NCBI GenBank assembly: GCA_050950505.1
Contig: JBMNHS010000001.1
Coordinates: 224,001 to 288,000, forward strand
Direction: 5' to 3'
Origin: Candidatus Methanomethylophilaceae archaeon
GTDB lineage: Archaea; Thermoplasmatota; Thermoplasmata; Methanomassiliicoccales; Methanomethylophilaceae
DNA: 64,000 bases
This document shows positions 699 through 54,254 of this stretch, piece by piece. Made by a program: the position numbers and the translations under genes. The notes beneath the pieces are model-generated. The model saw only the letters and a program-made list of their open reading frames with translations, was not told where the DNA came from and searched no databases. The number at the start of each line of letters is the position of its first letter. Positions within the stretch are counted from its first letter, which is position 1.

Positions 699-716
699 AC
701 CCGTATAAGTCACGAT

Positions 717-2217: not shown

Positions 2218-2227
2218 ATCAGAACCC

Positions 2228-2428: not shown

Positions 2429-2604
2429 AGTACAGAATAACGAGTGTCATTTTAATAAATAAGGATTGCGACTACCTCTAACATATCTCCAGATGCCGTG
2501 TTTAGGTAATCTGGTTGGGGCTTTGAACGCTATGTTGAACCTTTGTTTTTTATGCTTTATCTAAACCCGTGGAAAACCATATTACGCATTAAAATGGAAA
2601 TTGA

Positions 2605-2626
2605 TTCGACGGAAAACCCGTCGGAA
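2605..2626 (-). terminator. Hairpin downstream of the mscS-family gene
   Basis: TTCGACGG-AAAAC-CCGTCGGAA inverted repeat about 20 bp after the stop codon. Confidence 0.4.
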
Positions 2627-2645
2627 AGAAGTTTACCGAACAGTA

Positions 2646-4226
2646 TCAGAGTTCGTATTCGTCCATTCCCTTCGGTTCGGTTCTGATGTCATACCTCTTG
2701 TACGCAACTCGGATTCCGTTTTCCTTGAATTCTTTGAGAATCCTTTCCATAATGGCGGCTTCCGCCGACCACTGGTTTTCGTAATCGTAAACGTAAGCGG
2801 ACAAACGTATCTTTATTCCGGAATCGGTCAGTCCCGTCGCACGTGCGAAGGGCATCATTATGGACCCGTCGGTGATGATTTCGGGACGGTCCATAGCCGC
2901 ATCCGTCAGTATTTTATTAGCCAGCGTGAGATTCGTGTCTCGGGTCACTTCAACATAAAAGTTGAATCTGTAACGCAGATTCTCGCCGGTCATGTTGACG
3001 ACGGTGCTTGCGGCAACTTTGTCGTTGGGCATGGTTATTATTTCCTCGTTCCACGGATTCTTGAACCGTGTGTTCATAATACCCACCTGATGAACTTTGA
3101 GTTCGTTTCCGCCGTCTATCCTGATAAGGTCTCCGGCTTTGAACGGGCGTGTCGCCAGCAGCGAAATGCCGCTGAAGAACTGCTTAAGTATATTCTGAGC
3201 TCCCAGAGATATTGCCAAACCTGCGATGCCCGCACCCGCTATTATCCCCATGAGGTCCGCGCCGAGAGTGGCGAATATGCCGGCGGCCGCGAAAACAACG
3301 ATGATTATCTTACCGATCATGTTGAACAGCGGAATTAATGTCTCGTCGACTCCGTCGGGGGCCATATCCATTCCCCGTCCCGAGAAAGTATGACGTACGA
3401 GAACTTTGTAAATTTCCCATCCTATCACGGCGCCCAGCACGATATACAGAAGAGCCGCCACTCTTGCGGAAAAATCGATGATGTATTCGGAAGAGCCCAT
3501 AATCCTGAGGCTTTCGTTCACTCCGTATACCATGATGAAAAGAATCACCATGCTGTAGAAGGTTCTCATCTTTACGTCCTTCAGTTCTTCGTTTCTTTTT
3601 ATGGGTCTGCTGAGAACGATCTTCAACAAACCGACGACCGCCAAAGAAATAATTGCCCATATCAGGAGTGTGGCTATGGTTGCGCCGATGTATCCGTTAA
3701 AGGGCTTCGGCAAAGTGTTGGGTATGAAACCCATGATTTTATTGAAATATCCGGATGATGAAAGATCCGAATATATGTTAATCGTCAGAGTTTCTGCAAT
3801 CAGGTGACTTTCGGATGTGTCGTCCGTTTTGTAATACAATTGTATAACAACATCGCCGGCTCCTTCGGATGCGTATTTTTCCACAGAAAATGTCAAAACC
3901 AGGCTTTCTGATTCTCCGGCACCCAGGTTTCCGATGTATTCGGGATCGTTGAGGACTTCGACATGATCGGTACCGACGGCCTGTACGCTTACATCGGACC
4001 AGGAAGAAGATGTGATATTTTTAATTACGATTCTTACGGTCTCTTCCCCTCCCGCTTTGATCTTAACGGGATTTTCGTCACTTACCGGCAGTATTCCGAA
4101 CAATGAGGTGATTTCGCCAGTATTGGGTTCTTCCTCGATGGCATATGCCTCGTCAAACATCACGGGAACCGTCAATATCGTAATCAATACCGCGGCCAAC
4201 GCCATGATGCGCATCTTCTGCTTCAT
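2646..4226 (-). CDS. mscS: Mechanosensitive ion channel (MscS family) with N-terminal extracellular Ig-like region
   Basis: Signal peptide, TM helices, GAGIAGLAISLGAQNILKQFFSG and PFKAGDLI MscS motifs. Confidence 0.85.
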   Translation of the reverse strand: MKQKMRIMALAAVLITILTVPVMFDEAYAIEEEPNTGEITSLFGILPVSDENPVKIKAGGEETVRIVIKNITSSSWSDVSVQAVGTDHVEVLNDPEYIGNLGAGESESLVLTFSVEKYASEGAGDVVIQLYYKTDDTSESHLIAETLTINIYSDLSSSGYFNKIMGFIPNTLPKPFNGYIGATIATLLIWAIISLAVVGLLKIVLSRPIKRNEELKDVKMRTFYSMVILFIMVYGVNESLRIMGSSEYIIDFSARVAALLYIVLGAVIGWEIYKVLVRHTFSGRGMDMAPDGVDETLIPLFNMIGKIIIVVFAAAGIFATLGADLMGIIAGAGIAGLAISLGAQNILKQFFSGISLLATRPFKAGDLIRIDGGNELKVHQVGIMNTRFKNPWNEEIITMPNDKVAASTVVNMTGENLRYRFNFYVEVTRDTNLTLANKILTDAAMDRPEIITDGSIMMPFARATGLTDSGIKIRLSAYVYDYENQWSAEAAIMERILKEFKENGIRVAYKRYDIRTEPKGMDEYEL

Positions 4227-4329
4227 AACGGTGCATACGTCATTCTTTTAATAAATACTCATTAATTTGTTCCGATATTACATAAAGTTGCGACAAATCT
4301 TAAAACTTATAACGGATACGGGAGGATGT

Positions 4330-5109
4330 ATGATACTTATTAAGCTGGGAGGCAGCGTCATCACCGACAAGTCCCAGTACAGAACTTTCAACAAAGAGCG
4401 TGTTGCCCGTTTATGCTCGGAAATCAAAGAATCCGGCCATAAAGCGCTGATAGTTCACGGTGCGGGGTCGTTCGGACACGTTCTTTCCAAGCGTCACGGC
4501 ATACAGAACGGGTACGTTTCGGAAGAGCAGATTCCCGCCGTGGCCGAGGTTCAGTATGACGTGAGGGATCTCAGCCTGATGGTCGTAAGGGAAATGCTGA
4601 ACGTCGGCATTCCCGCGGTTTCCGTGCCGCCGGGATCCTGTTTCGTGTTGGATGACGGAAAATTGGTTGCATCCGATACCGAAGCCATGGAACGATTGGT
4701 TGACGCAGGAGTGATGCCCGTGCTTTTCGGGGATGTGCTGATGGACCGGGTAAAAGGTTTCGGCATCTGTTCCGGAGATACGTTTATGGAAAAACTTGCC
4801 GAGTTGTTTGATATTCAAAAAGCAATCTTCGTTTCCGACGTGGACGGCCTGTTCACGGCCGACCCGAAAACCGACGGCAAAGCGGAATTGATCGAAGTCG
4901 TGGATAAGAACGTATTGGAGAACATTAAATCAAAGAGCGACATAGACGATGTTACCGGAGGAATACGTTTCAAGATGGAAGCGATGCTCAGAATGAGCAC
5001 GGCGGACCGCGACTGCGTTCTGGTGAACGGCACCGTGGCAGGTCGGTTGGGCGCGTTGCTGAAAGGAGAAAACGTGATATCCACCACAGCCAAAGGCGGA
5101 ATAAAATGA
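4330..5109 (+). CDS. ipk: Isopentenyl phosphate kinase
   Basis: MILIKLGGSVITDK, VHGAGSFGH, DVTGGI; adjacent to fni; start at ATG 4330 after a GGAGG RBS. Confidence 0.9.
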   Translation: MILIKLGGSVITDKSQYRTFNKERVARLCSEIKESGHKALIVHGAGSFGHVLSKRHGIQNGYVSEEQIPAVAEVQYDVRDLSLMVVREMLNVGIPAVSVPPGSCFVLDDGKLVASDTEAMERLVDAGVMPVLFGDVLMDRVKGFGICSGDTFMEKLAELFDIQKAIFVSDVDGLFTADPKTDGKAELIEVVDKNVLENIKSKSDIDDVTGGIRFKMEAMLRMSTADRDCVLVNGTVAGRLGALLKGENVISTTAKGGIK

Positions 5110-6158
5110 ATATCAGGAACAGAAAGGCCGAACATATCGAAATATGTCTGAATGAAAAAATTGCTCCGGGATATTGTTATTGGGATGACGTGAGACTCGT
5201 TCACAACGCTTTGCCGGAACTCAATGCGGACGATATCGATACGAGTGTTACGCTGTTCGGCAAAAAATTGGATTTTCCTTTGATTGTTACCGCCATCACC
5301 GGCGGATTCAAAGGCGCCGAGAAAATTAACGCCAACATTGCGGAAGCCTGTGCGGAACTGGGTATAGGCATGGGCGTAGGCAGCGAAAGAGCCGGCGTAA
5401 TGGGCGTGGAGCCCGAAAGTTACAGCGTCGTGAAAGAATACGACGTTCCGTTGATGATCGGAAACGTCGGCGCTCCGCAGTTGGTGCCGCAACACAGCAA
5501 AGACTTCATCGGTTCGGATGAAATCGAGATGGCCAGAGACCTTGTGGACGCCGACGTCATAGCGGTTCATCTGAACTATCTTCAGGAAGCAATTCAGCCC
5601 GGAGGGGATACAAACGCCGAAGGCTGTTATACCGCAATCCGGGAACTTGCCCTGAAATATCCCCTGATTGTCAAAGAAACAGGCGCGGGAATTTCAAGAG
5701 ACGTTGCGGCAAGGCTGAAAGGAATCGGCATACTGGGTATCGACATTGCAGGAATGGGCGGTACCAGTTTCTCCGCGGTGGAGATGTACCGGGCACAGGA
5801 CATAAAGGACGAAATACTGGCGGAAATGGGAAAAACCTTCTTCGATTGGGGCATACCCGCTCCCGCTTCGCTTGTCGATGCAAAGTGCGGACTTCCGCTG
5901 ATTGCGTCCGGCGGCATACTGAACGGAGTGCATATCGCAAACAGTATAGCAATGGGCGCCGGCTGCGCCGGTGTCGCGAACGCGATACTGAAAGAAGCCA
6001 CGATATCCGCCGACGCCGTGAAGAAGAAACTCAACATAATCAAAGAAGAACTGAAGGTCGCAATGCTGCTGACCGGATGTTCCGACATCAAACAGCTTTC
6101 CAATGCCAGACATGTGATTCTGGGTAAAACCGCACAATGGTTAGAGGGACTTGAATGA
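5106..6158 (+). CDS. fni: Type 2 isopentenyl-diphosphate delta-isomerase
   Basis: RKAEHI, TAITGG, GVGSER, HLNYLQE, VKETGAG, GGTSFSAVE. Confidence 0.93.
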   Translation: MNIRNRKAEHIEICLNEKIAPGYCYWDDVRLVHNALPELNADDIDTSVTLFGKKLDFPLIVTAITGGFKGAEKINANIAEACAELGIGMGVGSERAGVMGVEPESYSVVKEYDVPLMIGNVGAPQLVPQHSKDFIGSDEIEMARDLVDADVIAVHLNYLQEAIQPGGDTNAEGCYTAIRELALKYPLIVKETGAGISRDVAARLKGIGILGIDIAGMGGTSFSAVEMYRAQDIKDEILAEMGKTFFDWGIPAPASLVDAKCGLPLIASGGILNGVHIANSIAMGAGCAGVANAILKEATISADAVKKKLNIIKEELKVAMLLTGCSDIKQLSNARHVILGKTAQWLEGLE

Positions 6159-7138
6159 ACGCAAAAGAATATCTTAAAAAAATCGCCGCGGAGCTTGACG
6201 CTCCGATGAAACAGTACATCGAAGACGAGGATCCGGCGGATTTGATTGAAGCCACAAGGCAGTATCCTTACGCCGGCGGGAAAAGAATGAGGCCGGCCAT
6301 GGCCGTCGCCTGCTGCGGTGCCGTCGGGGGAGACCGGAAGAAAGCGATTCCTCTGGCCGTTGCCGTGGAATACATACACAACTTCACACTGGTCCATGAC
6401 GATCTCATGGACGAGGACGACACCAGAAGAGGAATGACCACCATCCACGTGAAATACGGAATGCCCACCGCCGTTCTGGCGGGGGACGCGCTGTTCGCCA
6501 AAGCTTTCCAGATTATCGCCGAACTTGACGTTCCGGACAAAGCCATGAGGGATGTTCTGAGATACGTCACCAAAGCCGTCTGGGACCTTGCGAGGGGTCA
6601 GCAAATGGACATCAACAACGAAGGCAAAATCGTGACCGAAGACGTCTATATCGAAACTATCAGGCTCAAAACCGCCGTTCTGTTCGCCGCGGCCGCCGCC
6701 GGCGGCGCCATAGTCGGCGGCGCAGATGAGGAGACGGTCAAAGCGATCAACGAGTACGCCGTGGATCTGGGTCTCGGATTCCAGATGTACGATGATTATC
6801 TGGGTATTGCCGGGGACTCGTCCAAAACGGGAAAATCCGTGGGCAACGACATACGCAGGGGCAAATGCACCGTGATGGTGACCCACGCCGTTGACAACAT
6901 CACGAATCCCGCAGATTTGGAGAAGTTCAAGAACACATTGGGCAAAGAAGATGCCAGTGAGAAAGAAATCTCCGACGTTCTGAAAATTCTCGAAAAATCC
7001 GGCAGCATCGAATACGCCCTGAACTCCGCGAAAGCCAGAGTCGAGTCCGCCGTTTCGAAAATAAGCTCTCTTCCCGAAAGCGAAGAAAAAGATTTTATGA
7101 TCGGACTCGCCCGTTACGCCATAGACCGGGACGTCTGA
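6155..7138 (+). CDS. idsA: Geranylgeranyl diphosphate (polyprenyl) synthase
   Basis: GGKRMRP, HDDLMDEDDTRRG, GQQMD, FQMYDDYL aspartate-rich motifs. Confidence 0.9.
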   Translation: MNAKEYLKKIAAELDAPMKQYIEDEDPADLIEATRQYPYAGGKRMRPAMAVACCGAVGGDRKKAIPLAVAVEYIHNFTLVHDDLMDEDDTRRGMTTIHVKYGMPTAVLAGDALFAKAFQIIAELDVPDKAMRDVLRYVTKAVWDLARGQQMDINNEGKIVTEDVYIETIRLKTAVLFAAAAAGGAIVGGADEETVKAINEYAVDLGLGFQMYDDYLGIAGDSSKTGKSVGNDIRRGKCTVMVTHAVDNITNPADLEKFKNTLGKEDASEKEISDVLKILEKSGSIEYALNSAKARVESAVSKISSLPESEEKDFMIGLARYAIDRDV

Positions 7139-7144
7139 AACCAC

Positions 7145-7167
7145 AAAGGGCTTACCGCCCTTTTTTT
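7145..7167 (+). terminator. Intrinsic terminator after the isoprenoid operon
   Basis: AAAGGGC-TTACC-GCCC followed by T7. Confidence 0.65.
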
Positions 7168-7243
7168 CCATTTTTTACGATTCCCGGGCGGAGTATAACC
7201 TTAGCCGCGTCCCTTATATTGTGAACCGTGACTGAAACCTGAC

Positions 7244-8104
7244 GTGGACGTTTCGGAAACCGTTGCGGCCGTTATCGTGACGATCGCGGTTTTTACGCTG
7301 ATATCGGCATCCGTTGAGGATTTGAGGACAAGGACCGTAAGAGACGGCCATTGGGCCGTAATCGGCGGATCCGGAGCGATTCTCAACCTGTTTGCCTTCA
7401 TCGAAGGCGGAATTTTCTTCGGATTGACGGTTTCAATCCTGTCGATGACAATACTGTACTGTATTCTGAACGGATCGGAACGTTTCGGAAACGCAAGAAC
7501 GGCGTTCATCGGAACCGTGATTGCACTGACCGTTGTTTCTTACGTACTGGCTCCTTCGGATTCCTTCAGATATGCCGCGTTGTCGGTTCCGATTTTCAGC
7601 GGAATGTTCGTTCTGATGTATTACGCCGGACTGCTGAGGGGAGGAGCCGATGCGAAATGCATGGTATCCCTGGCAATCGCGTTTCCCGCCTATCCCATAT
7701 TTTATAAGTATCCTTTGATAAAAATCACTGACGGGATATCGTCAGTAATCTTTTCGTTCCCGTTGGCTATCCTCTTTCTTGCGCTTCTTATCACGTTGAC
7801 CGTCGCCGTTCCTCTTTTTCTGATAAATCTCAAAAGAGGAAATATCGGAAAAAACATGTTTTCCGGTTACGTGACCGACATCGCCGCAGCGAAGAATTCC
7901 CATGTTTGGCCGATGCATGACGTCCTTGACGGAAAATTGATAAAAATATCCCCTTCAGAAGATTCCACGGATATCTTTGAAAGATTGGAACAACAGAACG
8001 AAAAGAACATCTGGGTCACTCCCATGATTCCGTTCATGGTTCCGATTGCGGTTTCCTTCGCAATCACGGCAATATTCGGAAATCCGATTTTTCTCATACT
8101 ATAA
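7244..8104 (+). CDS. A24 prepilin/preflagellin peptidase (FlaK/PibD-like)
   Basis: SVEDLRTR and GGADAK catalytic aspartates; C-terminal IWVTPMIPFMVPI; multiple TM helices. Confidence 0.85.
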   Translation: MDVSETVAAVIVTIAVFTLISASVEDLRTRTVRDGHWAVIGGSGAILNLFAFIEGGIFFGLTVSILSMTILYCILNGSERFGNARTAFIGTVIALTVVSYVLAPSDSFRYAALSVPIFSGMFVLMYYAGLLRGGADAKCMVSLAIAFPAYPIFYKYPLIKITDGISSVIFSFPLAILFLALLITLTVAVPLFLINLKRGNIGKNMFSGYVTDIAAAKNSHVWPMHDVLDGKLIKISPSEDSTDIFERLEQQNEKNIWVTPMIPFMVPIAVSFAITAIFGNPIFLIL

Positions 8105-9089
8105 TGTTGAGGGGATGTCCGCAGGCAGCGCACTTGTTTCCTTTCAGTTCTTCGATTTCCACAAGATAACCCAGACGGCTTACCGCGACGGCTCCGCATT
8201 CCGGACAGTACGTATCCCCGGTGCCTTCGGAAACTATGTTTCCCGTGTACACGTAATTCAATCCCGCTCCCATAGCCACATCCCTTGCGGCCACCAATGC
8301 TTCCGGGGACGTCCACTGAACATCGTTCATTTCATTGTCGGGATGGAATCTTGAAAAGTGAACCGGAACGTCCGGAGACAGTTCGTCCTTCACCCACTCG
8401 GCGAACTTTCTGATTTCGTCCAGACTGTCGTTCCATCCGGGAATCATCAGATATGTAAGTTCGATGTGAACGCCTTCTTCAAAAACGATCTTGACGGATT
8501 TCAGAACATCTTCCAAATGCGCTCCGCATATCTTCATGTAAAACTCATCGGTGAAGGCTTTCACGTCGATGTTCATAGCAGAAACCACTTTGCACAGTTC
8601 CCTGAGTGGCTCTTCGTTAATCAGTCCGTTGGTGACCATCACGCAAATCAGATCGGGATCCAAATCCATCACGTCAAGTATGTATTCGAACCAAAGCGTC
8701 GGTTCGTTGTACGTGAAGGAGATTATGTCGGAACCGTCCCTTCTGCACATGCTCACCAATTTTTCGGGAGAAGCGTACGTGGTGCGTTTCTTTCCCGTAG
8801 AGTACTGGGATATCGCAAAATTCTGACAGTGTCTGCACCTCATGTTGCAACCGACGCTGCCCACGGAAAACGTTTTGGCGCCGGGATAAAAATGATACAG
8901 AGGTTTCTTTTCTATGGGATCCACGCATATCGACGACAATTTTCCGTAGGTGTACGCAATCAGTTTGTCTTCGGTTCCGTATCTCGAACCGCATCTTCCG
9001 TATTCTTCCACGCCGATTCTGCAGGCATGGGGGCACAGACCGCATACGTAGTAACCGTCTTCCACGGTGTAGTACGCCGCTTCCTTCAT
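8094..9089 (-). CDS. AmmeMemoRadiSam-type radical SAM enzyme (PflA-like)
   Basis: CGLCPHAC, DPIEKKPLYHF, CNMRCRHCQN, FTYNEP, HFSRFHP. Confidence 0.88.
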   Translation of the reverse strand: MKEAAYYTVEDGYYVCGLCPHACRIGVEEYGRCGSRYGTEDKLIAYTYGKLSSICVDPIEKKPLYHFYPGAKTFSVGSVGCNMRCRHCQNFAISQYSTGKKRTTYASPEKLVSMCRRDGSDIISFTYNEPTLWFEYILDVMDLDPDLICVMVTNGLINEEPLRELCKVVSAMNIDVKAFTDEFYMKICGAHLEDVLKSVKIVFEEGVHIELTYLMIPGWNDSLDEIRKFAEWVKDELSPDVPVHFSRFHPDNEMNDVQWTSPEALVAARDVAMGAGLNYVYTGNIVSEGTGDTYCPECGAVAVSRLGYLVEIEELKGNKCAACGHPLNIIV

Positions 9090-41800: not shown

Positions 41801-44800
41801 TCAGAACTCTTTTGCCCTCCTGCTTCTGAATACCACGGCTATTATACCTATGATTAATACAGCTGCGATCACAGCAACAATGCCGCTCATTGAGTTTGAA
41901 TCTACGACAAATCCGTTATCAAATTCAAATCCAATTTCTTCGAACAACAAGACATATTCCGAGAAATGTGTAGTTGTGAATTCAACGTACCCCATTCCGT
42001 CTTCCTCGAAATAATAGGCGTCAACGAGCTCTACGTTGTTGTTCAAACCGATGTAATAAACCTTTACCCAGTCTCTATTCTCACCGTCTTTCAGTGTGTA
42101 AGGTACGGTTATCTTGACATTTCCCAGATTGCTTGTGGATTTGGCATTTGTAAGATTTACACTGATTACAAAGGCGTCAGATACCTTTTCCCTCATCCCT
42201 TCATTCAATTCTTCGAGAATGATTTGATCTCTGAATCCAAAATATGTGTCCAAGGAGATGAGTATGTTATCTACGTCATAATCCGGACCGATAATAGCGT
42301 CCAGTGCGTCCGATGGGAAAGATATCGTTCCGTTTTTGAGTATAATATCCACAGTATCGGACTCATCGGCAGACCCGTCAATGTTTGCCCAAAGCTTTTC
42401 AAGATCCTTCTTGGCAACGGCAACAGCCTGCTTGTCCGTTCTGTCGATTGAGGTTGTTGAATCATTTATATTGACGATTTCATACCACAACGCAGTGACT
42501 ACCACGTCACGAGCAGGCATAATCTCCGGTAGATTAGGGAACCATTCGGCGAACGCGAATCCTTCCCTTACAGGATCTTCCGGTTTAACGATAGGCGTTC
42601 CGAAGGTTTGAGTCGTCGGTTCCGGAGGTAGTCCGTCACCGGGATAGAATGCAATCGAGTATTGGTTAACCGTCCATTCAGCGATAACTGATATGTCGCC
42701 TATGGGCATCGTTTCAGGTAACGCGGGACTCCATCCCACAAACGTGTATCCCTCCTTACTCGGATTGGCGGGAGGTGTTACGATCGCTTTGTAATCCAGT
42801 GTTATCGAAGCGACTTCATTTCCTCCGTCGGAGTCGAAGGTTATGGTGTATTGGTTTATCTTCCACGACGCCGTGAGCGTCATATCATTCGCAGGCATTG
42901 TGGGCGGAACTGGAATGTCCCAGCCCATGAATGTGTAACCTTCTTTAGTCGGATCGGCAGGGGGTGTTATAATCGCATTATAATCCAGAGTGATCGATGG
43001 GATTTCATTTCCTCCATTGGAGTTAAAGGCTATAGTGTATTGGATAACGTCCCATTCTGCGGTTATTATGATATCTTCTGTAGGCATTTCTAGAGGAATC
43101 AAAGTATTCCATTTAGAGAAAGTATGACCCGTTTTCGTCGGCGCTATCGGAGGTGTTACGGGAGTCCCATAACGCTGAATAATCGGTTCTACAAATGAGC
43201 CTCCGTCGGTCTCGAATGACATCATATAATGACTTTTCAGAGTTCTGACTTCAACCGTATCGCTTGAATCTGAAGAACCTATGATATTCGTCGCCAAAAT
43301 ATAGAATCCGTATAAGGTGTCTTCTTCCAAATTTGTTATGACGTATTCTGTGTTGTTTGTCGTATCATACTGTACCCATGATGCCTCGTTTCCACCTATT
43401 CTGTACCATACAGCATACGATACGGGATTTCCATTGGCGGACCATTCGAGACGTACTTTATCGTATCCGACAGGAGTAGCGGACAACCCTGTTACTTTGT
43501 CAGGCAGCGATAAGCGGATTAATTCCATGCCGCTCCACATGGATGAGTCAAATCCTGTTACGTCATCGAGATGATATATGGTTGTTTTACCCGAGAACGA
43601 ATTGATTTCGATACCCGGGGCGTTGCCTTCAAATTGTATACCGTTCAACGAAGAGCATCCATAGAACGCGTAATCGCCGATTGTGGATACGGTGGCAGGG
43701 ATGTTTATTTCGGCTAAGGACGAACAACCGCTGAAGCCGAAATCACCTATGCTTGTCACACCGGTGCTCATCGATACAGATGTCAGTAAGGAACATCCGT
43801 GGAAAGCATATTTGTCAATCAGAGAGACACTTTCGGGAATGATGATTTTTTCGTTCTTTCCATTCGGACACTTGATTAACACGTTAATTCCTTCATCGTA
43901 CAGAATTCCGTCTACTGAGGCATAGTTCTGATTTTCGGATTCCACGTTGATATCAGTTAATGACGAACAGCCCTGGAACGCATGTTTGTCGATACTTATC
44001 ACGCTTTCTGGAATGGTTATATTTTTCAGTGATGAACAATTGTGGAATGCGCCATACCCTATGTGGGTAACAGTGTTGGCAATCGAAACATCGGTCAGTG
44101 AAGAACTTCCAAAGAATGAGCAGTCGCCTATACTGATGACGCCGTCGGAGATTGTGACAAAGGCCAGATTGGAGTTATACCATGGCGTTTCGGGTCCATA
44201 TACCGAGTAGTATGATGCCCCCATTCCAGTTTGGCCCTCAGTCAGAGTCAGGGTTATGAGGCTTGTGAAACGCGCGCTAGTCCACATTTTGATGTCAATA
44301 GGAGCTGTCAAAGACGTTACGTTGTAACAGCCATATAATGCATGATCTCCGATTTCCTCAAGACTGTTGGGTAGTATTACATTCTCCAACGAGAAGCAAT
44401 TGTAAAAAGTAAAGTCTCCTAGGGATACAACGCCTTCCGAAACTATGAGAGATGTTAAATTGTAACGGCTTAGATGCCATGGAGTATACTGGTGTATACT
44501 ATACGATGGTCCTATGCCAACGTGTCCGCCTGTCAACACAATCGATTCTATATTTGTACAATCAAAGAACATATATTCCGTTACTTCGACATCTATTGGC
44601 ATCGTCAAAGATTTCAGACTCGTACAGCCATAGAATGCATGATCTCCTATGCCCGTAACACTATTGGGCATCTCTATGCCAGTCAGTGAGGAGCACCCAT
44701 AAAATGCATAGTCTCCTATAGAGTTGATTTCGCCTTCAATGGTGACATCTGTTAAAGACGTGCAATTGGAGAATGTGTACCCTCTTATGGAAGTAACCCC

Positions 44801-47038
44801 TTCAGGTATCGTTATGCTGGTTATACCTGTTGCATAAAACGCATACGATTCTATGTGAATTATTTCTTTCCCAAAGGAAATATATTCAAGAGATGTGCAT
44901 TGGGAAAATGCCGCATAACCGATATGAATGATTTCTTTCCCAAAGGAAATATATTCAAGAGATGTGCATTGGGAAAATGCCTCACTGTCGATGTGAGTAA
45001 CGTTTTCTCCTATAGAGATGTTTTTCAAAGATGTGCATTGGGAAAATGCCGCATAACCGATGTGAGTAACGTTTTCTCCTATAGAGATGTTTTTCAAAGA
45101 TGTGCATTGGGAAAATGCCGCATAACCGATGTGAGTAACGTTTTCTCCTATAGAGATGTTTTTCAAAGATGTGCATTGGGAAAATGCCGCATAACCGATG
45201 TGAGTGATTTCTTTCCCAAAGGAAACATTTTCAAGAGATGTGCATTGGAAAAACGTAGCATGATAGATCTGAGTCACGTTTCCTTCGACAGAAACATCGG
45301 TCAAAGATGTGCATAGACCGAATGCCCCCTCGCCAATGTGAGTAACGTTTTCTCCTATAGAGATGTTTTTCAAAGATGTGCATTGACTGAATGCCCCCTC
45401 GCCAATGTGAGTAACGTTTTCTCCTATAGAGATGTTTTTCAAAGATGTGCATTGATTGAATGCCCCCTCGCCAATGTGAGTTACTCTATCAGGTATTACT
45501 ACACTAACTAACGAGTCGCATTCAGAAAATGTATAGTCGCCGATGGATGTGACACCGTCTGAGATAGTAAGAGACACCAAATTGGAACTACTGTAGTACC
45601 AAGGAGTTACCTTATACGATCCAGAATAATCGGCACCCATCCCCGTCCGACCTTCTGTCAATGTGACCCGCTGTACGTTTGTACAGTTTTTAAACATATT
45701 TTCCGTAATCTGGATATCGATAGGGATGTCCAATGATTTTAAATTCGTACAATTATAGAATGCCTGTTTTCCTATCGACCTTACTCCGTCTGAAATCGTA
45801 AGATATACTGAATGGTTACTCTTATACCAGGGGGTGAATTCATACCCGTAAATGTAAGTGTAGTTGGAGAGCCAATATCTGTCGTAATCGGCCCCCTTCC
45901 CTGTCTGACCTACTGTCAATGTAATCCACTGTACGTTTGTACAGTTTTTAAACATATTTTCCGTAATCTGGATATCGATAGGTATACTCAGGATTGTCAA
46001 ACCTGTACAGCTGTTGAATGCACCGTCGCCAATAGATGTGATGCTATCCGGTATCGTAATTTCCTTTATTCCCGTGCATCCGGAGAATGCAGAGCTGCCG
46101 ATAGATGTGATGCTATCCGGTATCGTAATTTCCTTTATTCCCGTGCATCCGGAGAATGCAGAGCTGCCGATAGATGTGATGCTATCCGGTATCGTAATTT
46201 CCTTTATTCCCGTGCATCCGGAGAATGCAGAGCTGCCGATAGATTTTATTCCGTCTGAAATTGTGATGGATGTTAGAGTAGGCCTACTATGATGCCAGGG
46301 CAAGGCGTACTGATAACCTGCTGATGCCCATAATCCTGTTTTCCCCTCTGTCAATATTACTAATTTAATGTTTTCTGAATCCGGAAACATGGTGCTTGTA
46401 TATTGAATGTCCACGGGAAGCGTCAGTGATTCCACAGCTGTGCATCCAGAGAACGCATAATTGCCGATGGATTTGATTCCGTCCGAAATCGTAATGGAAG
46501 TCAAATTGGATTTGCTATACTGCCAAGGAGTTACAACGTTAGAACTATAGGATGTGCCTATACCTTCCTCCCCCATTGTTAATTTGACTGATTCAATGTT
46601 TGCACAATTATAAAATGAGTCTGAAACCGTTTGTAAATCTACAGGCATATCCAGAGACTTCAGATTTGTGCAACCAGAGAAGGCCTCTTTGCCAATGGAT
46701 CCGACTGTGTTTGGTATGATAATCTCAGTCAGACTTTTGTTATAAAATGCCCGCTCACCTATAGAGGAAACGATTTTGCCACTTATCTTATCGGGGATTG
46801 TTACGTTATTGCTTAATCCTTTGTATTTTGTGATTGTTAAGCTCCCGTCGTCGTTCTCCCTGTATTCAAAATCGCTCAATGGATTCGATGCAGAGGTAAT
46901 CGGAACAATTTCCTGGGAATCGGTTGTAAAATGTTGGGCTCCTTCCTCAACGTCGTTAGTATATTCTTCCAACAGGAAATAAGCAGGAACCGTCAGGACT
47001 ATTGCTAAAGCGATAACTGCATAGACTTTTCTACCCAT
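41801..47038 (-). CDS. Large BspA-LRR adhesin-like protein with FN3 and Listeria-Bacteroides repeats
   Basis: 1745 aa; many LRR_5 repeats, FN3 (VRLEWS...NLEEDTLYGFYI), PTKEGYTFxGW repeats, C-terminal TM. Confidence 0.9.
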   Translation of the reverse strand: MGRKVYAVIALAIVLTVPAYFLLEEYTNDVEEGAQHFTTDSQEIVPITSASNPLSDFEYRENDDGSLTITKYKGLSNNVTIPDKISGKIVSSIGERAFYNKSLTEIIIPNTVGSIGKEAFSGCTNLKSLDMPVDLQTVSDSFYNCANIESVKLTMGEEGIGTSYSSNVVTPWQYSKSNLTSITISDGIKSIGNYAFSGCTAVESLTLPVDIQYTSTMFPDSENIKLVILTEGKTGLWASAGYQYALPWHHSRPTLTSITISDGIKSIGSSAFSGCTGIKEITIPDSITSIGSSAFSGCTGIKEITIPDSITSIGSSAFSGCTGIKEITIPDSITSIGDGAFNSCTGLTILSIPIDIQITENMFKNCTNVQWITLTVGQTGKGADYDRYWLSNYTYIYGYEFTPWYKSNHSVYLTISDGVRSIGKQAFYNCTNLKSLDIPIDIQITENMFKNCTNVQRVTLTEGRTGMGADYSGSYKVTPWYYSSSNLVSLTISDGVTSIGDYTFSECDSLVSVVIPDRVTHIGEGAFNQCTSLKNISIGENVTHIGEGAFSQCTSLKNISIGENVTHIGEGAFGLCTSLTDVSVEGNVTQIYHATFFQCTSLENVSFGKEITHIGYAAFSQCTSLKNISIGENVTHIGYAAFSQCTSLKNISIGENVTHIGYAAFSQCTSLKNISIGENVTHIDSEAFSQCTSLEYISFGKEIIHIGYAAFSQCTSLEYISFGKEIIHIESYAFYATGITSITIPEGVTSIRGYTFSNCTSLTDVTIEGEINSIGDYAFYGCSSLTGIEMPNSVTGIGDHAFYGCTSLKSLTMPIDVEVTEYMFFDCTNIESIVLTGGHVGIGPSYSIHQYTPWHLSRYNLTSLIVSEGVVSLGDFTFYNCFSLENVILPNSLEEIGDHALYGCYNVTSLTAPIDIKMWTSARFTSLITLTLTEGQTGMGASYYSVYGPETPWYNSNLAFVTISDGVISIGDCSFFGSSSLTDVSIANTVTHIGYGAFHNCSSLKNITIPESVISIDKHAFQGCSSLTDINVESENQNYASVDGILYDEGINVLIKCPNGKNEKIIIPESVSLIDKYAFHGCSLLTSVSMSTGVTSIGDFGFSGCSSLAEINIPATVSTIGDYAFYGCSSLNGIQFEGNAPGIEINSFSGKTTIYHLDDVTGFDSSMWSGMELIRLSLPDKVTGLSATPVGYDKVRLEWSANGNPVSYAVWYRIGGNEASWVQYDTTNNTEYVITNLEEDTLYGFYILATNIIGSSDSSDTVEVRTLKSHYMMSFETDGGSFVEPIIQRYGTPVTPPIAPTKTGHTFSKWNTLIPLEMPTEDIIITAEWDVIQYTIAFNSNGGNEIPSITLDYNAIITPPADPTKEGYTFMGWDIPVPPTMPANDMTLTASWKINQYTITFDSDGGNEVASITLDYKAIVTPPANPSKEGYTFVGWSPALPETMPIGDISVIAEWTVNQYSIAFYPGDGLPPEPTTQTFGTPIVKPEDPVREGFAFAEWFPNLPEIMPARDVVVTALWYEIVNINDSTTSIDRTDKQAVAVAKKDLEKLWANIDGSADESDTVDIILKNGTISFPSDALDAIIGPDYDVDNILISLDTYFGFRDQIILEELNEGMREKVSDAFVISVNLTNAKSTSNLGNVKITVPYTLKDGENRDWVKVYYIGLNNNVELVDAYYFEEDGMGYVEFTTTHFSEYVLLFEEIGFEFDNGFVVDSNSMSGIVAVIAAVLIIGIIAVVFRSRRAKEF
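44860..45480. repeat. 69-bp tandem repeats encoding LRR units
   Basis: Near-identical TGTGAGTAACGTTTTCTCCTATAGAGATGTTTTTCAAAGATGTGCAT... units. Confidence 0.85.
46032..46238. repeat. Three perfect 69-bp tandem repeats
   Basis: ATAGATGTGATGCTATCCGG...AGAGCTGCCG x3 (46032, 46101, 46170). Confidence 0.9.
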
Positions 47039-47129: not shown

Positions 47130-48540
47130 AAAGTGGTCTGCACATTGAGGTTTATCCAAAAACACAAAAGTACAGACCGTGAGCAACATCTTCGAAGTTG
47201 GTTAAATAGTCAGCGGAAAAGACGCAACGGAATGCACCTTTTGTGCGGAGGATACCGAACGAGGTGCGAAAATGAAAATTGCGGTGGGAGTGGATCTTCA
47301 CTCGAAAATGGCCGTTGCATATGCCGTTTTGGCAAGCAACAGGGAACTGAAAAAGAACGAAAAAGAATTTTTGGATTATTTCAACAAGGAATTTTCCAAT
47401 GTTCCGTCAACACCGGAAAACATGAAACGTTTGGCCGTGGCCCTGCGGGGCCACGAGGCAAACGTTCTCATCGAGAATTCAACGAAGACGCACGAAACAT
47501 ACTGGGTATTGACGAATGCCGGGTGCAAAGTCACCGTGGCATTCGCGGCGGACCTGTACCGGATAACAAAATCCGTGAAGAAAACAGACCGTAACGACGC
47601 CATGGAATTGGCGGCGTACATGCGCAGGCGCATGAACGGCGAAAACGAGTTCGCCGAATGTTATATGCCGTCTCTGGACTGGATGATGAAGCGTGAAATC
47701 TGCCGTGCGGTGTTTTGGGAAAAAAGACATCTGGCCGACGTTAAAAGAAGGGTTCGGGCGCATTTGCTTCTTCACGGAATAAATCTGAGTCAGGAGTATT
47801 CGGATATTTTCTGCAAAAAAGCCGTTGCGGACATGAAGAGAACCAGGGATCCGGTTTTATTTATAGCGATAAACGAGGCAGAATCGATAAAAAAGAGAAC
47901 CGATGATATGAAAAAAATCGTAGAACATTATTTTGCGAACAACCGAATGTGCGAATTAATTTATTCGATTCCGGGTTTCGGTTTGATATCCGCGGCCTAT
48001 CTCACTTCTTTAATCGTGAATATGTCCAGATTCGAGAATTCGTCCAAATTCTCAGCGTATTTCGGTCTGGTTCCGAAAGTCAGGAACTCCGCGGATTCCA
48101 ATCCGCGGTGTTCCACCACTCACCGAGGGGACGAGGATGCCAGACGGTTGCTGTGCCAGTCTGCGATGGTACACATCCGCACCGTCGAAGACTCCGTCGT
48201 AACAAAAATGTATCACTGTCTCCGAGGCAACGGAAAGGCTCACAAAGAAGCTTTGGTTGCCTGTGCAAGAAAGCTCACGACCGTTGTTTGGTCAGTCGTG
48301 AAGAACGACCTTCCGTACACCGACGACGCGGGCCTTCTGGCCCGCGCCGAAGATGTGATAGAGAAGGTAGAGGAGGAAATGGCCGAATAATCGAACCGTT
48401 GCGGAGACTGAAAACGGACAACGGCGGGGAAAGAATCGCAGAACACCATTTGATCGTTTCTTCCGGAAACCGATCGGCAGATAAACTTGCGCAGTACCCC
48501 CTCGTCTTTCGGAGCAGTGTTGATTCTCAATAGAGTAATC
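47130..48540 (+). mobile_element. IS110-family insertion sequence (ends approximate)
   Basis: Transposase flanked by about 140-150 bp non-coding segments; no long terminal inverted repeats, as typical for IS110. Confidence 0.75.
47272..48390 (+). CDS. IS110-family DEDD transposase/recombinase
   Basis: GVDLH, IENST, KTDRNDA, SIPGFG, RF...AYFGLVP..RNS, ALVACARKL. Confidence 0.92.
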   Translation: MKIAVGVDLHSKMAVAYAVLASNRELKKNEKEFLDYFNKEFSNVPSTPENMKRLAVALRGHEANVLIENSTKTHETYWVLTNAGCKVTVAFAADLYRITKSVKKTDRNDAMELAAYMRRRMNGENEFAECYMPSLDWMMKREICRAVFWEKRHLADVKRRVRAHLLLHGINLSQEYSDIFCKKAVADMKRTRDPVLFIAINEAESIKKRTDDMKKIVEHYFANNRMCELIYSIPGFGLISAAYLTSLIVNMSRFENSSKFSAYFGLVPKVRNSADSNPRCSTTHRGDEDARRLLCQSAMVHIRTVEDSVVTKMYHCLRGNGKAHKEALVACARKLTTVVWSVVKNDLPYTDDAGLLARAEDVIEKVEEEMAE

Positions 48541-51278: not shown

Positions 51279-51812
51279 ATGGATCCGGCGCTGGAATACC
51301 TTTCGAAGAAATGCCTTGAGACCGCCGCTCAGGTGTCCGAGGAAGAAAGGGAGAAGCTTGCCGCCCTCATTTCCACCAACCGGAAGATTTTCATTTACGG
51401 TTCGGGAAGATCCGGACTTGTCGGCGAACTGTTCGCGGTGAGACTTGTTCAATTGGGTCTCGACGTTCATCTGGTGGGTGAAATGACCACGCCGATCATC
51501 GGCCGGAACGATCTCACCATACTGATATCCAACACCGGGGAAACGTCTTCTGTTGTCAAAACCGCGAACATCGCGGGACGGATCGGTTCTTACGTCGTGT
51601 CTTTCACTTCGGATTCCCGAAGCAAACTCGCCCATGCCTCCGACATGGTCATTCTTTTGCGTCCGGCCTGCATAAACCCCGAATACGCCCCGTTGGGAAC
51701 GGTGTTCGAAGGTTCGGCTCTCATGTTCTTCGACAGTTTCATCGCGGATCTTATGAAAAAATTCGATTGCGGCGAAACCGAAATGAAAGGCCGGCATGCG
51801 ATTTGGGTTTGA
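51279..51812 (+). CDS. hxlB: SIS-domain 6-phospho-3-hexuloisomerase-like protein
   Basis: YGSGRSG, AVRLVQLG, VGEMTTP, APLGTVFE. Confidence 0.8.
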   Translation: MDPALEYLSKKCLETAAQVSEEEREKLAALISTNRKIFIYGSGRSGLVGELFAVRLVQLGLDVHLVGEMTTPIIGRNDLTILISNTGETSSVVKTANIAGRIGSYVVSFTSDSRSKLAHASDMVILLRPACINPEYAPLGTVFEGSALMFFDSFIADLMKKFDCGETEMKGRHAIWV

Positions 51813-52331
51813 TCACAAGTCCTCGGATACGACCATCCGGGCTTTTCTGAAACTCCCGTCATCGTTCACGAACACCGACATTGTCTGTTCCGAGGGATCC
51901 AAAACCGCGGAGAATCCGGTTTTTTCACCGAATATGTTTTTGTGGGTTTTCATGTCCGTGTCCGACATGTAACAGCCGAATCCGGGGTGGGAATGGTACC
52001 ATCCCACCACGGTTCTGCATTTGTTCTCATCCATGGATGAGAACAAATCCTCCAAAGCCTTCGGATCGAACCTTACGCTTGTGTCCGTAGCCACGAGTCC
52101 CGAGGTGGCGGTGCCTTCCGCCACCGCGTATTCCCCTTCGCCGTCCACGTAAACCTTGCCCATCAGGAGTCCCATGACTTCTTTGTTGTCCCCGTACCCC
52201 AAATCGGCATGGAAAGCCATTTTGGAAATCACGCTTTCTCCCATGAACAGTTCCGCTCCGGGAACGCCGCGGTTCCTGAATTCTTTGACTCCCTCTTCCG
52301 AGGATATTATTTTAGGCATCTGTACCGCCAT
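51813..52331 (-). CDS. JAB/MPN+ metalloisopeptidase (Rpn11/CSN5-like)
   Basis: EVMGLLMG and VVGWYHSHPGFGCYMSDTD JAMM motif. Confidence 0.9.
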   Translation of the reverse strand: MAVQMPKIISSEEGVKEFRNRGVPGAELFMGESVISKMAFHADLGYGDNKEVMGLLMGKVYVDGEGEYAVAEGTATSGLVATDTSVRFDPKALEDLFSSMDENKCRTVVGWYHSHPGFGCYMSDTDMKTHKNIFGEKTGFSAVLDPSEQTMSVFVNDDGSFRKARMVVSEDL

Positions 52332-52803
52332 AGCTTACCTTCGCCGAGAATTTAGGTTTATTGGAAGAATACCATTCCGCCGCCGCGACGCAGGACTCCG
52401 TCCCGTAAGGATTCATGGGGTTCGGGGCGGAGATGAGATTTTCGATTCCGATGATGAACGAAATGAGATTGGAACCGAAATTCCAATTCTCGGATATTTT
52501 CAAACATACCAAGCCCCCGTCTTCGGGCATCATGATGTTCGGATGAAATATCTCGGTTCTCCAGTTTACTCTGGGTCTTTCGTAAGGATATTCGTCGGAT
52601 ATCACCAGATCGAAACGGTGGCGGTCCGTTTCTTTATCTCTTGTTGCTTTTGCGGGAAGGTTGAAAAGACATACGCTCAGGATTATTGGAAACCCCGCAT
52701 CTTCCGGTATTGAGTCCAATCCCGTGTCGAAGTAATCGTTGAGTGTTTCAATTTCGTTGTTTAGTCTTTTCATCAGAAGAGGTTTCGCCAATCCCATGGT
52801 CAT
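52312..52803 (-). CDS. Ubiquitin-conjugating enzyme E2 (UBC-like)
   Basis: KRLNNE, YPYERP, IFHPNI, GLVCL catalytic Cys, W...LISFI, PNPMNP. Confidence 0.9.
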   Translation of the reverse strand: MTMGLAKPLLMKRLNNEIETLNDYFDTGLDSIPEDAGFPIILSVCLFNLPAKATRDKETDRHRFDLVISDEYPYERPRVNWRTEIFHPNIMMPEDGGLVCLKISENWNFGSNLISFIIGIENLISAPNPMNPYGTESCVAAAEWYSSNKPKFSAKVSYGGTDA

Positions 52804-53039
52804 CCGCCTTCCGGGTCCGGAATTATTTCAACCACGTCCCCGTCGCAGAGATTCATTTCCTCAACGGTTCTGGACCCCGGCAGAAGTTTCGTTCCTTTCT
52901 TGAGAACGAAGGCTTCGGCGCCTTCCCCCCAGTAACTTGTGGCGATTTCGATGATTTCCGCCATTTTTTCATGAGGTTCGAGTTCCATTCTCAACGAAGA
53001 TTTCGTTATCATGTTAACAACTGTGATTTTTACCGTCAT
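52800..53039 (-). CDS. Ubiquitin-like (beta-grasp) protein with C-terminal diglycine
   Basis: 79 aa ending PDPEGG-stop; TVEEMNLCDGDVVEII resembles the ubiquitin C-terminal strand. Confidence 0.85.
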   Translation of the reverse strand: MTVKITVVNMITKSSLRMELEPHEKMAEIIEIATSYWGEGAEAFVLKKGTKLLPGSRTVEEMNLCDGDVVEIIPDPEGG

Positions 53040-53040
53040 T

Positions 53041-53796
53041 TCAATCCCACCTGTAATTGGGACACGCTTCGTCCATGTCCAGGGAAACCGTGTCCATGGT
53101 TCCCCTGACCCCGTCGTAAAAAGTTATGTTTCTGATACAGAGATCTTCTTTCCCCGAAGCTATCTTTTCCGCTTCCCTGACCTGCATCGCCGCGACTATG
53201 GAAGTGGTGGTTATTTCCGCAGGAAGCAGCGGAGGGGCGTTTGCCGAACCGGTGCAGGAGAATCTTGAATTCAGAACCTTGACGTGACTTCCGTTGATTG
53301 CGCAGTTCAGACACGGACCGCCGGGAAGAACGGTCTGAACTTTGCCCCTCATTCCGTCCGTCCCTCCGTCCACATACGGGATTCCGTGGTAAATCGCGTG
53401 GGAATTGGTGTGAAGCCTTGCGGAGATGTTGTCGAGGCAGCCCAGAATCAGATCGTAATCCCAGTCGTCGATTTCCTGGATCTTTGAATTGATTCCTTTC
53501 ACGTTCATGTTCGGGGACTGCCGGTTGGCACGTTCCGCCAGAACATGGGATTTGATCAGACCGCAATCGCATTCCCTGAAAAATACGCAACGGCTGAGAT
53601 TGGAAATTTCCACACGGTCCATGTCCACCACCGTGAGGTCCCGGAAACCGGCAAGGATCATGCATTTCAGGACTTCGTTCCCCAAAGCCCCGGCACCGAC
53701 GACCAGACATTTCAAACGGGAAAAACGGTCCACATCCATCCAGGAAATACGCCTCATGCGGTCGTATCTGTCTTCTTCCGATGTACTCCGCACCAT
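53041..53796 (-). CDS. E1 ubiquitin-like activating enzyme (ThiF/MoeB family)
   Basis: DRYDR, VVGAGALG, VDMDRVEISNLSR, CLDN, PCLNC, FSCT putative catalytic Cys. Confidence 0.9.
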   Translation of the reverse strand: MVRSTSEEDRYDRMRRISWMDVDRFSRLKCLVVGAGALGNEVLKCMILAGFRDLTVVDMDRVEISNLSRCVFFRECDCGLIKSHVLAERANRQSPNMNVKGINSKIQEIDDWDYDLILGCLDNISARLHTNSHAIYHGIPYVDGGTDGMRGKVQTVLPGGPCLNCAINGSHVKVLNSRFSCTGSANAPPLLPAEITTTSIVAAMQVREAEKIASGKEDLCIRNITFYDGVRGTMDTVSLDMDEACPNYRWD

Positions 53797-53870
53797 CGTC
53801 CCGAATATTTGAAAGTGTCAATAAAATATTATCCGTTGATGTTAATATAATTGTATAGGACGGTTCCATA

Positions 53871-54254
53871 TCATGATTGGTCTTGAATCTCCAATATTTT
53901 TTTGAAGCATACGGGAACCTGATGGCAAAGTTCCTGTCCGCAGTAAACCGTAACCGTGCCTTCGGCACGTTTACGGATTGAACTTTCCCAATCCGGGAAT
54001 TCGGAGACGAAATGAATCAGCACCGTCGAATCCCGGGGGAGGGAATCTCCGAGGACGCTTTCCGGATTGTCTTTTTCTCCGATTACAAAAATATTTTCTT
54101 CCGGAAACCTGTTTTTTAGAAATTCATAAAAATCTTCCAGGAGTCTGACCTGCCCCATTCTTCTTTTTCCGGTCATCATCGCTCCGTCCCCGGAGCCCGC
54201 AAAGGATTCCATTCTCTGTTCGGAAAGAACGTCCGTTTCCGGAACACAGTTCAT
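53871..54254 (-). CDS. Hypothetical protein
   Basis: 127-aa ORF overlapping the stop of the upstream gene; start uncertain. Confidence 0.5.
   Translation of the reverse strand: MNCVPETDVLSEQRMESFAGSGDGAMMTGKRRMGQVRLLEDFYEFLKNRFPEENIFVIGEKDNPESVLGDSLPRDSTVLIHFVSEFPDWESSIRKRAEGTVTVYCGQELCHQVPVCFKKILEIQDQS

Follow-up and report, generated by a model that had tools for sequence, protein, structure and literature searches.

Does a four-gene cluster in a methanogenic archaeon encode a complete ubiquitin-like conjugation pathway, and if so, with which partners and to what end? We asked this of a 64,000-nucleotide window of DNA from a Candidatus Methanomethylophilaceae archaeon (assembly GCA_050950505.1, contig JBMNHS010000001.1, here C1, positions 224,001 to 288,000; plain coordinates below are those of the window). 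Four near-contiguous open reading frames (ORFs) lie on its minus strand at 51813-53796, in the order E1 activating enzyme, ubiquitin-like modifier (Ubl), E2 conjugating enzyme and JAB protease. A sequence-only reading had proposed that they form an E3-less ubiquitination cascade used for proteasomal targeting or antiviral conjugation. We conclude that the operon, judged from its sequences, very probably encodes a working conjugation system. We lean toward reading it as a vertically inherited, eukaryote-like housekeeping ubiquitylation pathway that is assisted by a RING protein and serves neither defence nor sulfur transfer.

The operon encodes an E1, a ubiquitin-fold modifier, an E2 and a JAMM protease

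The E1 gene (53041..53796, 251 aa) is separated by 1 nt from the Ubl gene (52800..53039, 79 aa), whose stop codon overlaps the start of the E2 gene (52312..52803, 163 aa); the E2 gene in turn overlaps the JAB gene (51813..52331, 172 aa) by 20 nt. All four are on the minus strand. When searched with hidden Markov models from Pfam, the E1, E2 and JAB products matched ThiF, UQ_con and JAB at 154.2, 52.9 and 48.2 bits, above the respective cut-offs of 28.1, 27 and 22.5. UQ_con was found in 0 of 14 control genomes, and the protease is the sole PF01398 match in its own genome. This genome (1.33 Mb, 2 contigs, 99.6% complete) encodes McrA and is therefore that of a methanogen, and the closest database proteins bear Methanomassiliicoccales or Methanomethylophilaceae names. 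The ORFs, Pfam matches, motifs and McrA bear out what had been read from the sequence, an intact E1-Ubl-E2-JAB operon in a Thermoplasmata-type methanogen, and the profile searches proposed as a check gave scores above the cut-off throughout.

The E2 has the UBC fold, with H87-P88-N89 and Cys100 (GGLVC) in register with UbcH10, Ubc13 and Rad6-type E2s (PDB alignments including 2e2c and 8iya). All four residues are invariant in 16 of 16 sequences, and the PDB entries that match best, at about 1e-10, are E2s from eukaryotes. Most relatives have a start that aligns to Met3. The JAB product is a JAMM/MPN+ metalloprotease whose full motif, E51...H113-S-H115-x7-S123-x2-D126, aligns to CSN5; both His, the Ser and the Asp are conserved without exception in 14 sequences. 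CSN5 (5.6e-13) and Rpn11 (1.5e-11) match it better than the Caldiarchaeum Rpn11 homologue does (6fjv, 6.1e-8), and the NCBIfam desampylase model desamp_Halo reaches 38.2 bits against a cut-off of 130. The protease thus appears to be nearer Rpn11/CSN5 than the archaeal desampylases, and the eukaryote-like character that had been ascribed to the E2 and the protease holds for both. Catalytic and motif residues of the operon's proteins are invariant across 14 to 16 orthologues and their conservation is therefore far beyond chance.

No Pfam family reached its cut-off on the Ubl of this genome (YukD, 15 bits). Among 16 members of the Ubl family, 12 touch the ubiquitin family PF00240 at E ≤ 0.1 (best 4.4e-4) and none touches ThiS. 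The C-terminal P-D-P-E-G-G (P74-G79) is invariant in 16 of 16 sequences (alignment A4). A Foldseek search with the AlphaFold2 (AF2) model, which has a predicted local distance difference test (pLDDT) score of 85.7, returned SUMO1 (7.3e-8) and Caldiarchaeum ubiquitin (6fno_D, 9.4e-8, template modeling score 0.87), along with NEDD8, ISG15 and ubiquitin. In its predicted structure, the modifier is a beta-grasp of the ubiquitin/SUMO type.

The Ubl of this genome is mature, with the stop codon directly after ...IPDPEGG. Among 77 orthologues whose alignment reaches the end, 27 are GG-final and 50 carry 1-10 extra residues, a single residue in 36 of them. Most members are therefore tailed, and the family usually needs a maturase. 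The co-encoded JAMM protease, to judge from these C-termini, probably also matures the Ubl in the tailed species. The earlier proposal that the protease acts as a deconjugase rather than a maturase is therefore supported for this genome alone.

The E1 is a minimal ThiF-type enzyme. It carries a nucleotide loop, GAGALGNE, at residues 34-41, the zinc-site cysteines C162-x2-C165 and C245, and Cys181 in RFSCTG. Its best PDB matches are UBA3 (3.7e-25), Uba1 (2e-24) and SAE2 (8e-22), with E. coli MoeB at 3.7e-15; the adenylation domain appears closer to those of eukaryotic E1s than to that of E. coli MoeB. Of the parts of a canonical eukaryote-type E1, the adenylation domain is present, and both the separate catalytic-Cys domain and the C-terminal ubiquitin-fold domain (UFD) are absent. 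About 20 residues (169-188) stand in place of the roughly 80 (198-278) that make up the catalytic-Cys domain of UBA3, and the protein terminates at residue 251, six past the last zinc-site Cys. A 15-residue insert in the crossover loop has no counterpart in the MoeB-like paralogue of the same genome. Cys181 sits in this insert and is invariant in 15 of 15 orthologues.

The operon is conserved across the order, and its remnants lack conjugation features where the E2 is lost

We surveyed the operon in Methanomassiliicoccales/Thermoplasmata, as the sequence-only reading had suggested, using 80 species-representative loci out of 196 related loci found. The order E1-Ubl-E2-JAB, convergent with the same SIS gene, was present in 12 of 12 first loci and in 74 of the 80. 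Three of the six non-conforming loci are clipped by contig ends; tblastn gave no match to the E1 in two others and none to the E1 and Ubl in the last. The same operon is found in other families of the class (L027-L029). Because the gene order and the SIS neighbour are kept across the order, we conclude that the operon is inherited vertically as part of the core genome. By profile search, 53 of 61 relatives have UQ_con, as do 112 of the 151 genomes sampled from the order and 130 of the 301 from the class. The class-level tallies include two unpublished genomes, G152 and G256 (both family f16, genus g38), and only the f16 counts (0/37) rest partly on them.

Names on the 80 loci are of the Thermoplasmata type, except for one Eggerthellaceae bin. 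In that record (L144, titled Eggerthellaceae bacterium), an archaeal E2 at 40% identity lies with its flanks on a contig of a bacterial bin, which is probably a mis-binned archaeal contig. A second, distinct ubiquitin-type operon occurs in large Thermoplasmata genomes of family f9, genus g31 (L020-L024). In L023 (positions 1-3073) it encodes a pro-Ubl ending ...QQAGGWIRV, a 422-aa E1, a 178-aa E2 (UQ_con, 82 bits) and a 368-aa JAB bearing a zinc ribbon at its C-terminus. Up to 4 E2 matches are present in some f9/g31 genomes.

Five complete genomes lack the E2, and all five also lack PF01398. Three of the five retain remnants beside the SIS gene, all without the GG. The remnant trio of G119 (L061, G119:C1:1448056-1451580) consists of an E1-like ORF without the loop Cys, a Ubl-like ORF without the C-terminal GG and a JAB-like ORF in which HSH has become RTS; this trio is either decaying or repurposed. 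In G294 and G317 only Ubl-like ORFs remain, again without GG. Compared as sequences, the conjugation-specific features appear to decay once the E2 and the RING gene described below are lost. Decay of the GG, the JAMM His and the loop Cys in E2-less lineages argues that the intact system conjugates through the E2.

A RING-like membrane protein is the candidate E3

If the pathway uses an E3, none is apparent next to the operon: there is no Cys-rich ORF between 47 and 58 kb of the window. Scanning all 9443 ORFs of this genome with a strict RING regular expression gave no match, since the fourth ligand is a Cys with 4-residue spacing. A search of the genome for RING proteins, also suggested by the sequence-only reading, did yield one candidate. 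The genome-wide zf-RING_2 search gave a single sub-threshold match, at 17.8 bits, to a 198-aa ORF (G000:C1:683894-684490, minus strand; G000 is the source genome) that lies outside the window (C1:224001-288000).

The product is a RING-like membrane protein with a strongly hydrophobic segment at residues 27-45, a C4HC3 domain at about residues 75-125 and then zinc ribbons. Its own ligand pattern is C-x2-C-x11-C-x-C-x4-H-x2-C-x7-C-x2-C, and the form C-x2-C-x(9-14)-C-x-C-x4-H-x2-C-x(4-8)-C-x2-C is kept in 21 of 24 orthologues. All eight ligands (C7, C10, C22, C24, H29, C32, C39, C42) are invariant in alignment A2. Among the domain pieces, 21 of 21 match zf-RING_2 at E ≤ 0.1 (best 1.2e-6) and 18 of 21 match Prok-RING_1. 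The model has a pLDDT of 86.8, and its top Foldseek matches are RING E3s at probabilities of 0.97-1.0, with root-mean-square deviations (rmsd) of 2.2-3.3 Å over 47-60 columns. Public annotation calls the orthologues hypothetical or "double zinc ribbon", and a homologue search with the protein as query returned only 2 proteins. A second A2 match in the same genome (C1:142147-142227, E 1.2e-4) was rejected as a RING and is a single zinc ribbon instead.

We counted how the E2 and the RING gene are distributed. Among 61 relatives, 49 have both, 4 have only the E2 (these are 72-76% complete), 1 has only the RING gene (91% complete) and 7 have neither (all at least 93% complete). For wider counts, a profile of the RING domain plus zinc ribbons (A1) proved promiscuous at class level, matching 285 of 301 genomes, and was replaced by the domain-only profile A2. 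With A2, 110 of the 151 genomes of the order have both genes, 2 only the E2, 4 only the RING and 35 neither, so that 145 are concordant. The same 7 of 13 genomes of genus g8 carry both. Genera g16 (19 genomes) and g25 (4 genomes) have neither, except for a fragmentary match at 1.5e-4 in one g16 genome (G404). E2-less genomes are not below the window's genus in size, and the control family DUF6951 is present in 148 of the 151 genomes, including all of g16 and g25. At class level, a comparison of two lists places the RING-like domain in all 130 E2-positive genomes. In all five complete E2-less genomes, the HdrA-like / Pop5-PsmA-SBDS synteny is intact and the RING ORF is gone from its site.

One RING-like frame in an E2-negative genome (G053:C23:8953-9081) contains an in-frame TAG. 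Methanomassiliicoccales use pyrrolysine; the frame could be a pseudogene, or the TAG a pyrrolysine codon.

The two genes are neighbours in family f21. In 4 of 4 loci, a 1460-aa protein with a C-terminal RING motif (Prok-RING_1, 25 bits) is divergent to the E2 gene, 200-340 bp apart; a tblastn search over about 5 kb turned up no E1, Ubl or JAB. The f21 E2 itself carries a SUMO-like domain as an N-terminal fusion (Rad60-SLD, 22.1 bits against a cut-off of 23.8). In L077 the two divergent genes, for the E2 and the RING-bearing protein, lie at 7702-8385 on the plus strand and 3115-7497 on the minus strand, and L078-L080 share this layout. The RING-bearing protein of about 1460 aa also has a weak YfdX match. 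Proteins of about 1460-1650 aa with the same C4HC3 domain are widespread in Thermoplasmata families (for example G298:C24, G091:C29 and G186:C5), including f23, f31 and f18, where no E2 was found.

We then modelled the E2 with the RING domain and two zinc ions, alongside three controls. The interface score ipSAE (interaction prediction score from aligned errors) was 0.76, 0.76 and 0.74, and the best control gave 0.01; the mark that we applied is reached by 58 of 80 solved complexes and by 2 of 110 mismatched pairs. Contacts agreed between runs at 96% or more, and the partner pLDDT was 85. In the model, E2 helix 1 and residues 108-112 face the C-x-I/V-C-x-G loop and C-P-Y of the RING, which is the classical E2-RING surface as predicted here. 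Taken together, we judge that the RING protein is probably the E3 of the operon's system. The E3-less character proposed from the sequence alone is probably wrong, in view of the co-occurrence, the controlled docking model and the RING-bearing neighbour of the E2 in f21.

Proposed pathway and alternative explanations

We propose the following route. The minimal E1 would adenylate the C-terminal Gly-Gly of the Ubl and would probably hold it as a thioester on Cys181 of the crossover loop. The Ubl would be handed to Cys100 of the E2, as its intact and invariant UBC motifs suggest. The RING partner, with its N-terminal membrane helix, C4HC3 cross-brace and zinc ribbons, would then steer transfer to target lysines. 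The Rpn11/CSN5-like JAMM protease would strip the Ubl from targets and probably also expose the GG where the Ubl is tailed. In the likeliest outcome, which is also the weakest step of the scheme, tagged and perhaps membrane-proximal proteins would go to PAN or Cdc48 and the 20S proteasome.

What is the tag for? In this genome, the RING gene runs into the beginning of a Pop5-like gene, which is followed by the proteasome alpha gene (PsmA) and SBDS. All 9 other loci keep the RING gene next to the Pop5-like one; five of these have about 1.3 kb in between and end before PsmA. The genome also encodes PAN (567 bits, cut-off 500) and two Cdc48-like ATPases. The position of the RING gene, together with PAN and Cdc48, is suggestive only of a link to the proteasome, and we hold a proteasomal outcome of tagging to be possible rather than probable. 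The same enzymology could instead attach a regulatory or sorting tag, SUMO-like or for control of membrane proteins, a live rival that we consider less likely than not. The Ubl model matches SUMO as well as ubiquitin, and the candidate E3 appears to be anchored in the membrane by its hydrophobic segment. An alignment of 16 Ubls has no invariant lysine, and formation of chains is therefore doubtful. Set against a purely regulatory tag, although circumstantially, are the place of the RING gene at the Pop5-like head of the proteasome alpha cluster, the Rpn11/CSN5 type of the protease and the presence of PAN and Cdc48.

It is also conceivable, if improbable, that the cascade is E3-independent: E1, Ubl, E2 and JAB would be complete, the E2 would transfer the Ubl alone and the RING-like protein would be unrelated. 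Like the lack of an invariant lysine, the following points weigh against the RING-assisted pathway. With 3-kb flanks included, none of the 80 loci has a RING gene inside or next to the operon (only E1, Ubl, E2, JAB and SIS were scored), and in this genome the gene is about 400 kb away. The RING-like domain of this genome reaches 20.0 bits on zf-RING_2, below the cut-off of 27.3. Foldseek E-values for its model are all at least 0.015, and VIA-align returned U-box, RING and ZZ domains at a best Z of 6.1, where the tool counts 8 as safe, with an rmsd of 2.2 Å over 53 residues against a U-box. Within the class, 78 of 171 genomes without an E2 also have the domain, frequently as part of proteins of about 1500 aa, and it is therefore not exclusive to the pathway. 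In the order, six of the 151 genomes break the pattern: only the E2 is present in G346 and G401 (66% and 82% complete), and only the RING in G053, G360, G396 and G410. Co-occurrence was counted over related genomes with one control gene only, and roughly four to six losses may account for the joint absences. The complex model used custom alignments and riding zinc, outside the calibration, and its pass may reflect the model's memory of, or likeness to, solved E2-RING complexes rather than binding by this genome's own copy. Finally, the E1 lacks the Cys domain and the UFD, which is the E2-recruiting domain of canonical E1s. Against E3 independence stand the near-perfect joint presence and absence of E2 and RING, the deletion of the RING gene at its site in all five complete E2-less genomes, the adjacency in f21 and the docking model with its clean controls. 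We therefore retain the RING-assisted pathway as the better account.

It is highly improbable that the genes form a sulfur-carrier or SAMP/Urm1-like system with an accessory or inert E2 and JAB. In favour of this, the E1 is of MoeB/ThiF size with weak NCBIfam matches to ThiF, MoeB and UbaA, and moaD_arch gives 18.8 bits with the Ubl. These scores are far below the cut-offs (83 against 450 bits for SAMPActivE1UbaA; 49.5 for moaD_arch), none of the 16 Ubls matches ThiS in Pfam, and the E1 has no rhodanese domain. Conventional sulfur-carrier roles are already covered by other genes of this genome: a ThiF-ThiS pair apart from the operon, a MoeB-like E1 and a further GG-ended ThiS-like ORF. The invariance of the E2 and JAMM catalytic residues, and the loss of the GG where the E2 is lost, also speak against it. 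The ThiF-family gene adjoining ThiS (G000:C1:948654-949241, minus strand, outside the window) has one in-frame TGA in the search output.

An anti-virus module of the Bil, Bub or CBASS (cyclic-oligonucleotide-based antiphage signaling system) Cap2/Cap3 kind is more remote still, and the antiviral role entertained earlier finds no support: the E1 does match PADLOC 'E1-E2' models at 1.6e-13 and BilD at 5.1e-5, and the JAB matches PADLOC JAB models at 4.5e-5, but these matches cover the shared adenylation and JAB cores only (E1 residues 25-110 of 600-aa E1-E2 models), the value for the E2 is 0.014 and the Ubl gives none, and the operon keeps a fixed core-genome position beside the same SIS gene across the order, with no effector or defence neighbours seen.

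Relation to known systems

The closest parallel is the Caldiarchaeum subterraneum operon (Ub, E1, E2, small RING, Rpn11), with which this system has in common a ubiquitin-fold modifier ending in GG, an E2 of the UBC fold, a JAMM protease resembling Rpn11 and, putatively, a RING-type partner. Caldiarchaeum ubiquitin is the second-best structural match of the Ubl model, and the Rpn11 homologue of that organism is among the matches of the JAB. In the covered parts of three papers, the Caldiarchaeum E1 is described with a Cys domain of roughly 60 aa and a C-terminal ubiquitin-like domain (PMC5654768, PMC6043591, PMC4571572); unlike it, the 251-aa E1 here has neither. Two of the same sources, in the parts covered, report that the co-encoded JAMM protease matures Caldiarchaeum ubiquitin (PMC5654768, PMC6043591), whereas the Ubl of this genome is already mature. 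The lineage here is euryarchaeal, and the system is kept across an order. Unlike in Caldiarchaeum, the candidate RING partner is membrane-anchored, and unlike in Caldiarchaeum/Asgard-type operons, it is encoded apart from the operon, beside proteasome genes.

Other systems share some of these parts. The JAMM-3 group of Fuchs et al. 2018 (PMC6043591), in the text covered, is nearer Rpn11/CSN5 than JAMM-1 and JAMM-2 are and lies in operons with Ub, E1 and E2 homologues and no E3. The operon here fits that description; since the covered text names no taxa, the likeness is by description, and no RING partner is proposed there. Haloferax SAMP/UbaA/HvJAMM1, likewise archaeal, pairs an E1 of MoeB size with a beta-grasp modifier ending in GG and has a JAMM enzyme as its deconjugase. 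Sampylation requires neither E2 nor E3 (PMC11354881); unlike it, the present system has a canonical E2 and a ubiquitin-like rather than ThiS/MoaD-like Ubl, and the UbaA and desampylase models score far below their cut-offs. The gene set E1, E2, Ubl and JAB-type peptidase also recalls bacterial Bil, Bub and CBASS Cap2/Cap3, from which the operon differs by its partial or weak PADLOC matches, an E2 that matches eukaryotic UQ_con, its fixed core-genome position and the lack of defence neighbours.

For the E1 itself, a working analogy can be found in the UFM1 pathway. Uba5 is a short E1 with its catalytic Cys inside the adenylation domain, and it still charges its E2, Ufc1. Uba5-Ufc1 serves as an analogy only; the best E1 matches here are UBA3, Uba1 and SAE2.

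The case for novelty in the sequence-only reading is weakened. In the parts of these sources covered, Fort et al. 2015 (PMC4453063) report an Rpn11-like MPN protein in Methanomassiliicoccus luminyensis, placed with PSMD7 and PSMD14, and a 2023 preprint (10.1101/2023.07.25.550441) shows a deep "Thermoplasmatota E2" clade; the JAMM-3 account above also anticipates some of the operon, and NCBI annotation already names the E2. The covered parts of Grau-Bove 2015 (PMC4327156) and Koonin 2015 (PMC4571572) do not mention the lineage. Our literature search found no account of the whole operon, the minimal E1, the order-wide conservation and losses or the RING partner, although operons of this kind may already be depicted in Supplementary Fig. 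1 of PMC5654768 ("Cluster III") and in Fig. 1 of PMC6043591. The operon belongs to the archaeal eukaryote-like kind of ubiquitylation system and differs by its minimal E1 and, probably, by a separately encoded, membrane-anchored RING partner.

Genomic setting of the operon

The operon's neighbours are RpoN, S9, L13, L18e, a TIM-barrel protein, SIS, DUF6951, AIM24, Ham1 and a RIO/Bud32-like kinase, and its GC content of 0.50-0.52 matches other core parts of the window. The housekeeping context and core-like composition noted earlier are thus confirmed. An AT-rich spacer of 74 nt lies 5' of the E1 start (53797..53870, minus strand) and has TATA-like runs; it is likely, judging by its composition, to be the promoter region of the four-gene operon. 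A 127-aa gene upstream (53871-54254) was considered as part of the system and set aside: it has no Pfam match and was seen only in loci of the same genus (L002, L004, L007), with many loci ending before that position. The RNA evidence is thin: one metatranscriptome library, X1, has contigs over 51763-52194 and 52717-52871, with about 100% identity, and run X2 covers 53644-53794. This records presence in an RNA library alone, not transcription, and the stretches left uncovered carry no weight.

Elsewhere in the window, a 1745-aa protein (41801-47038, minus strand) combines ten stretches of BspA-type leucine-rich repeats (LRR_5, 748 bits) with Listeria-Bacteroides repeats and an fn3 domain. Its gene lies at the edge of a low-GC stretch (0.39-0.45, about 14-47 kb) that may be a surface-protein island. 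Between this giant protein and the ribosomal-protein genes lies an IS110-family transposase (47272-48390, plus strand; Transposase_20, 64 bits).

Implications

The boldest form of our reading, which we offer tentatively, is that Methanomassiliicoccales, which fall outside Asgard/TACK and include gut members in culture, run a complete pathway of E1, E2, RING E3 and deubiquitinase. Its membrane-anchored RING, co-encoded with proteasome alpha, would point to a route for membrane-proximal proteins resembling endoplasmic-reticulum-associated degradation, and its E1 would be simpler than any E2-charging E1 seen so far. With an E1 this short, how an E2 is charged without a UFD becomes a mechanistic question. 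If the reading is true, the E1-E2-RING triad would be older than the Asgard/TACK-eukaryote lineage, or would have moved between archaeal phyla as separate genes.

Archaeal ubiquitin biochemistry has so far been done only with proteins of the uncultured Caldiarchaeum. Methanomassiliicoccus luminyensis is cultured. In an order with cultured members, in vivo targets, the role of the proteasome and the role of the RING protein would be directly testable, and the lineages that lost the system, with their remaining parts decayed, would serve as ready natural comparators.

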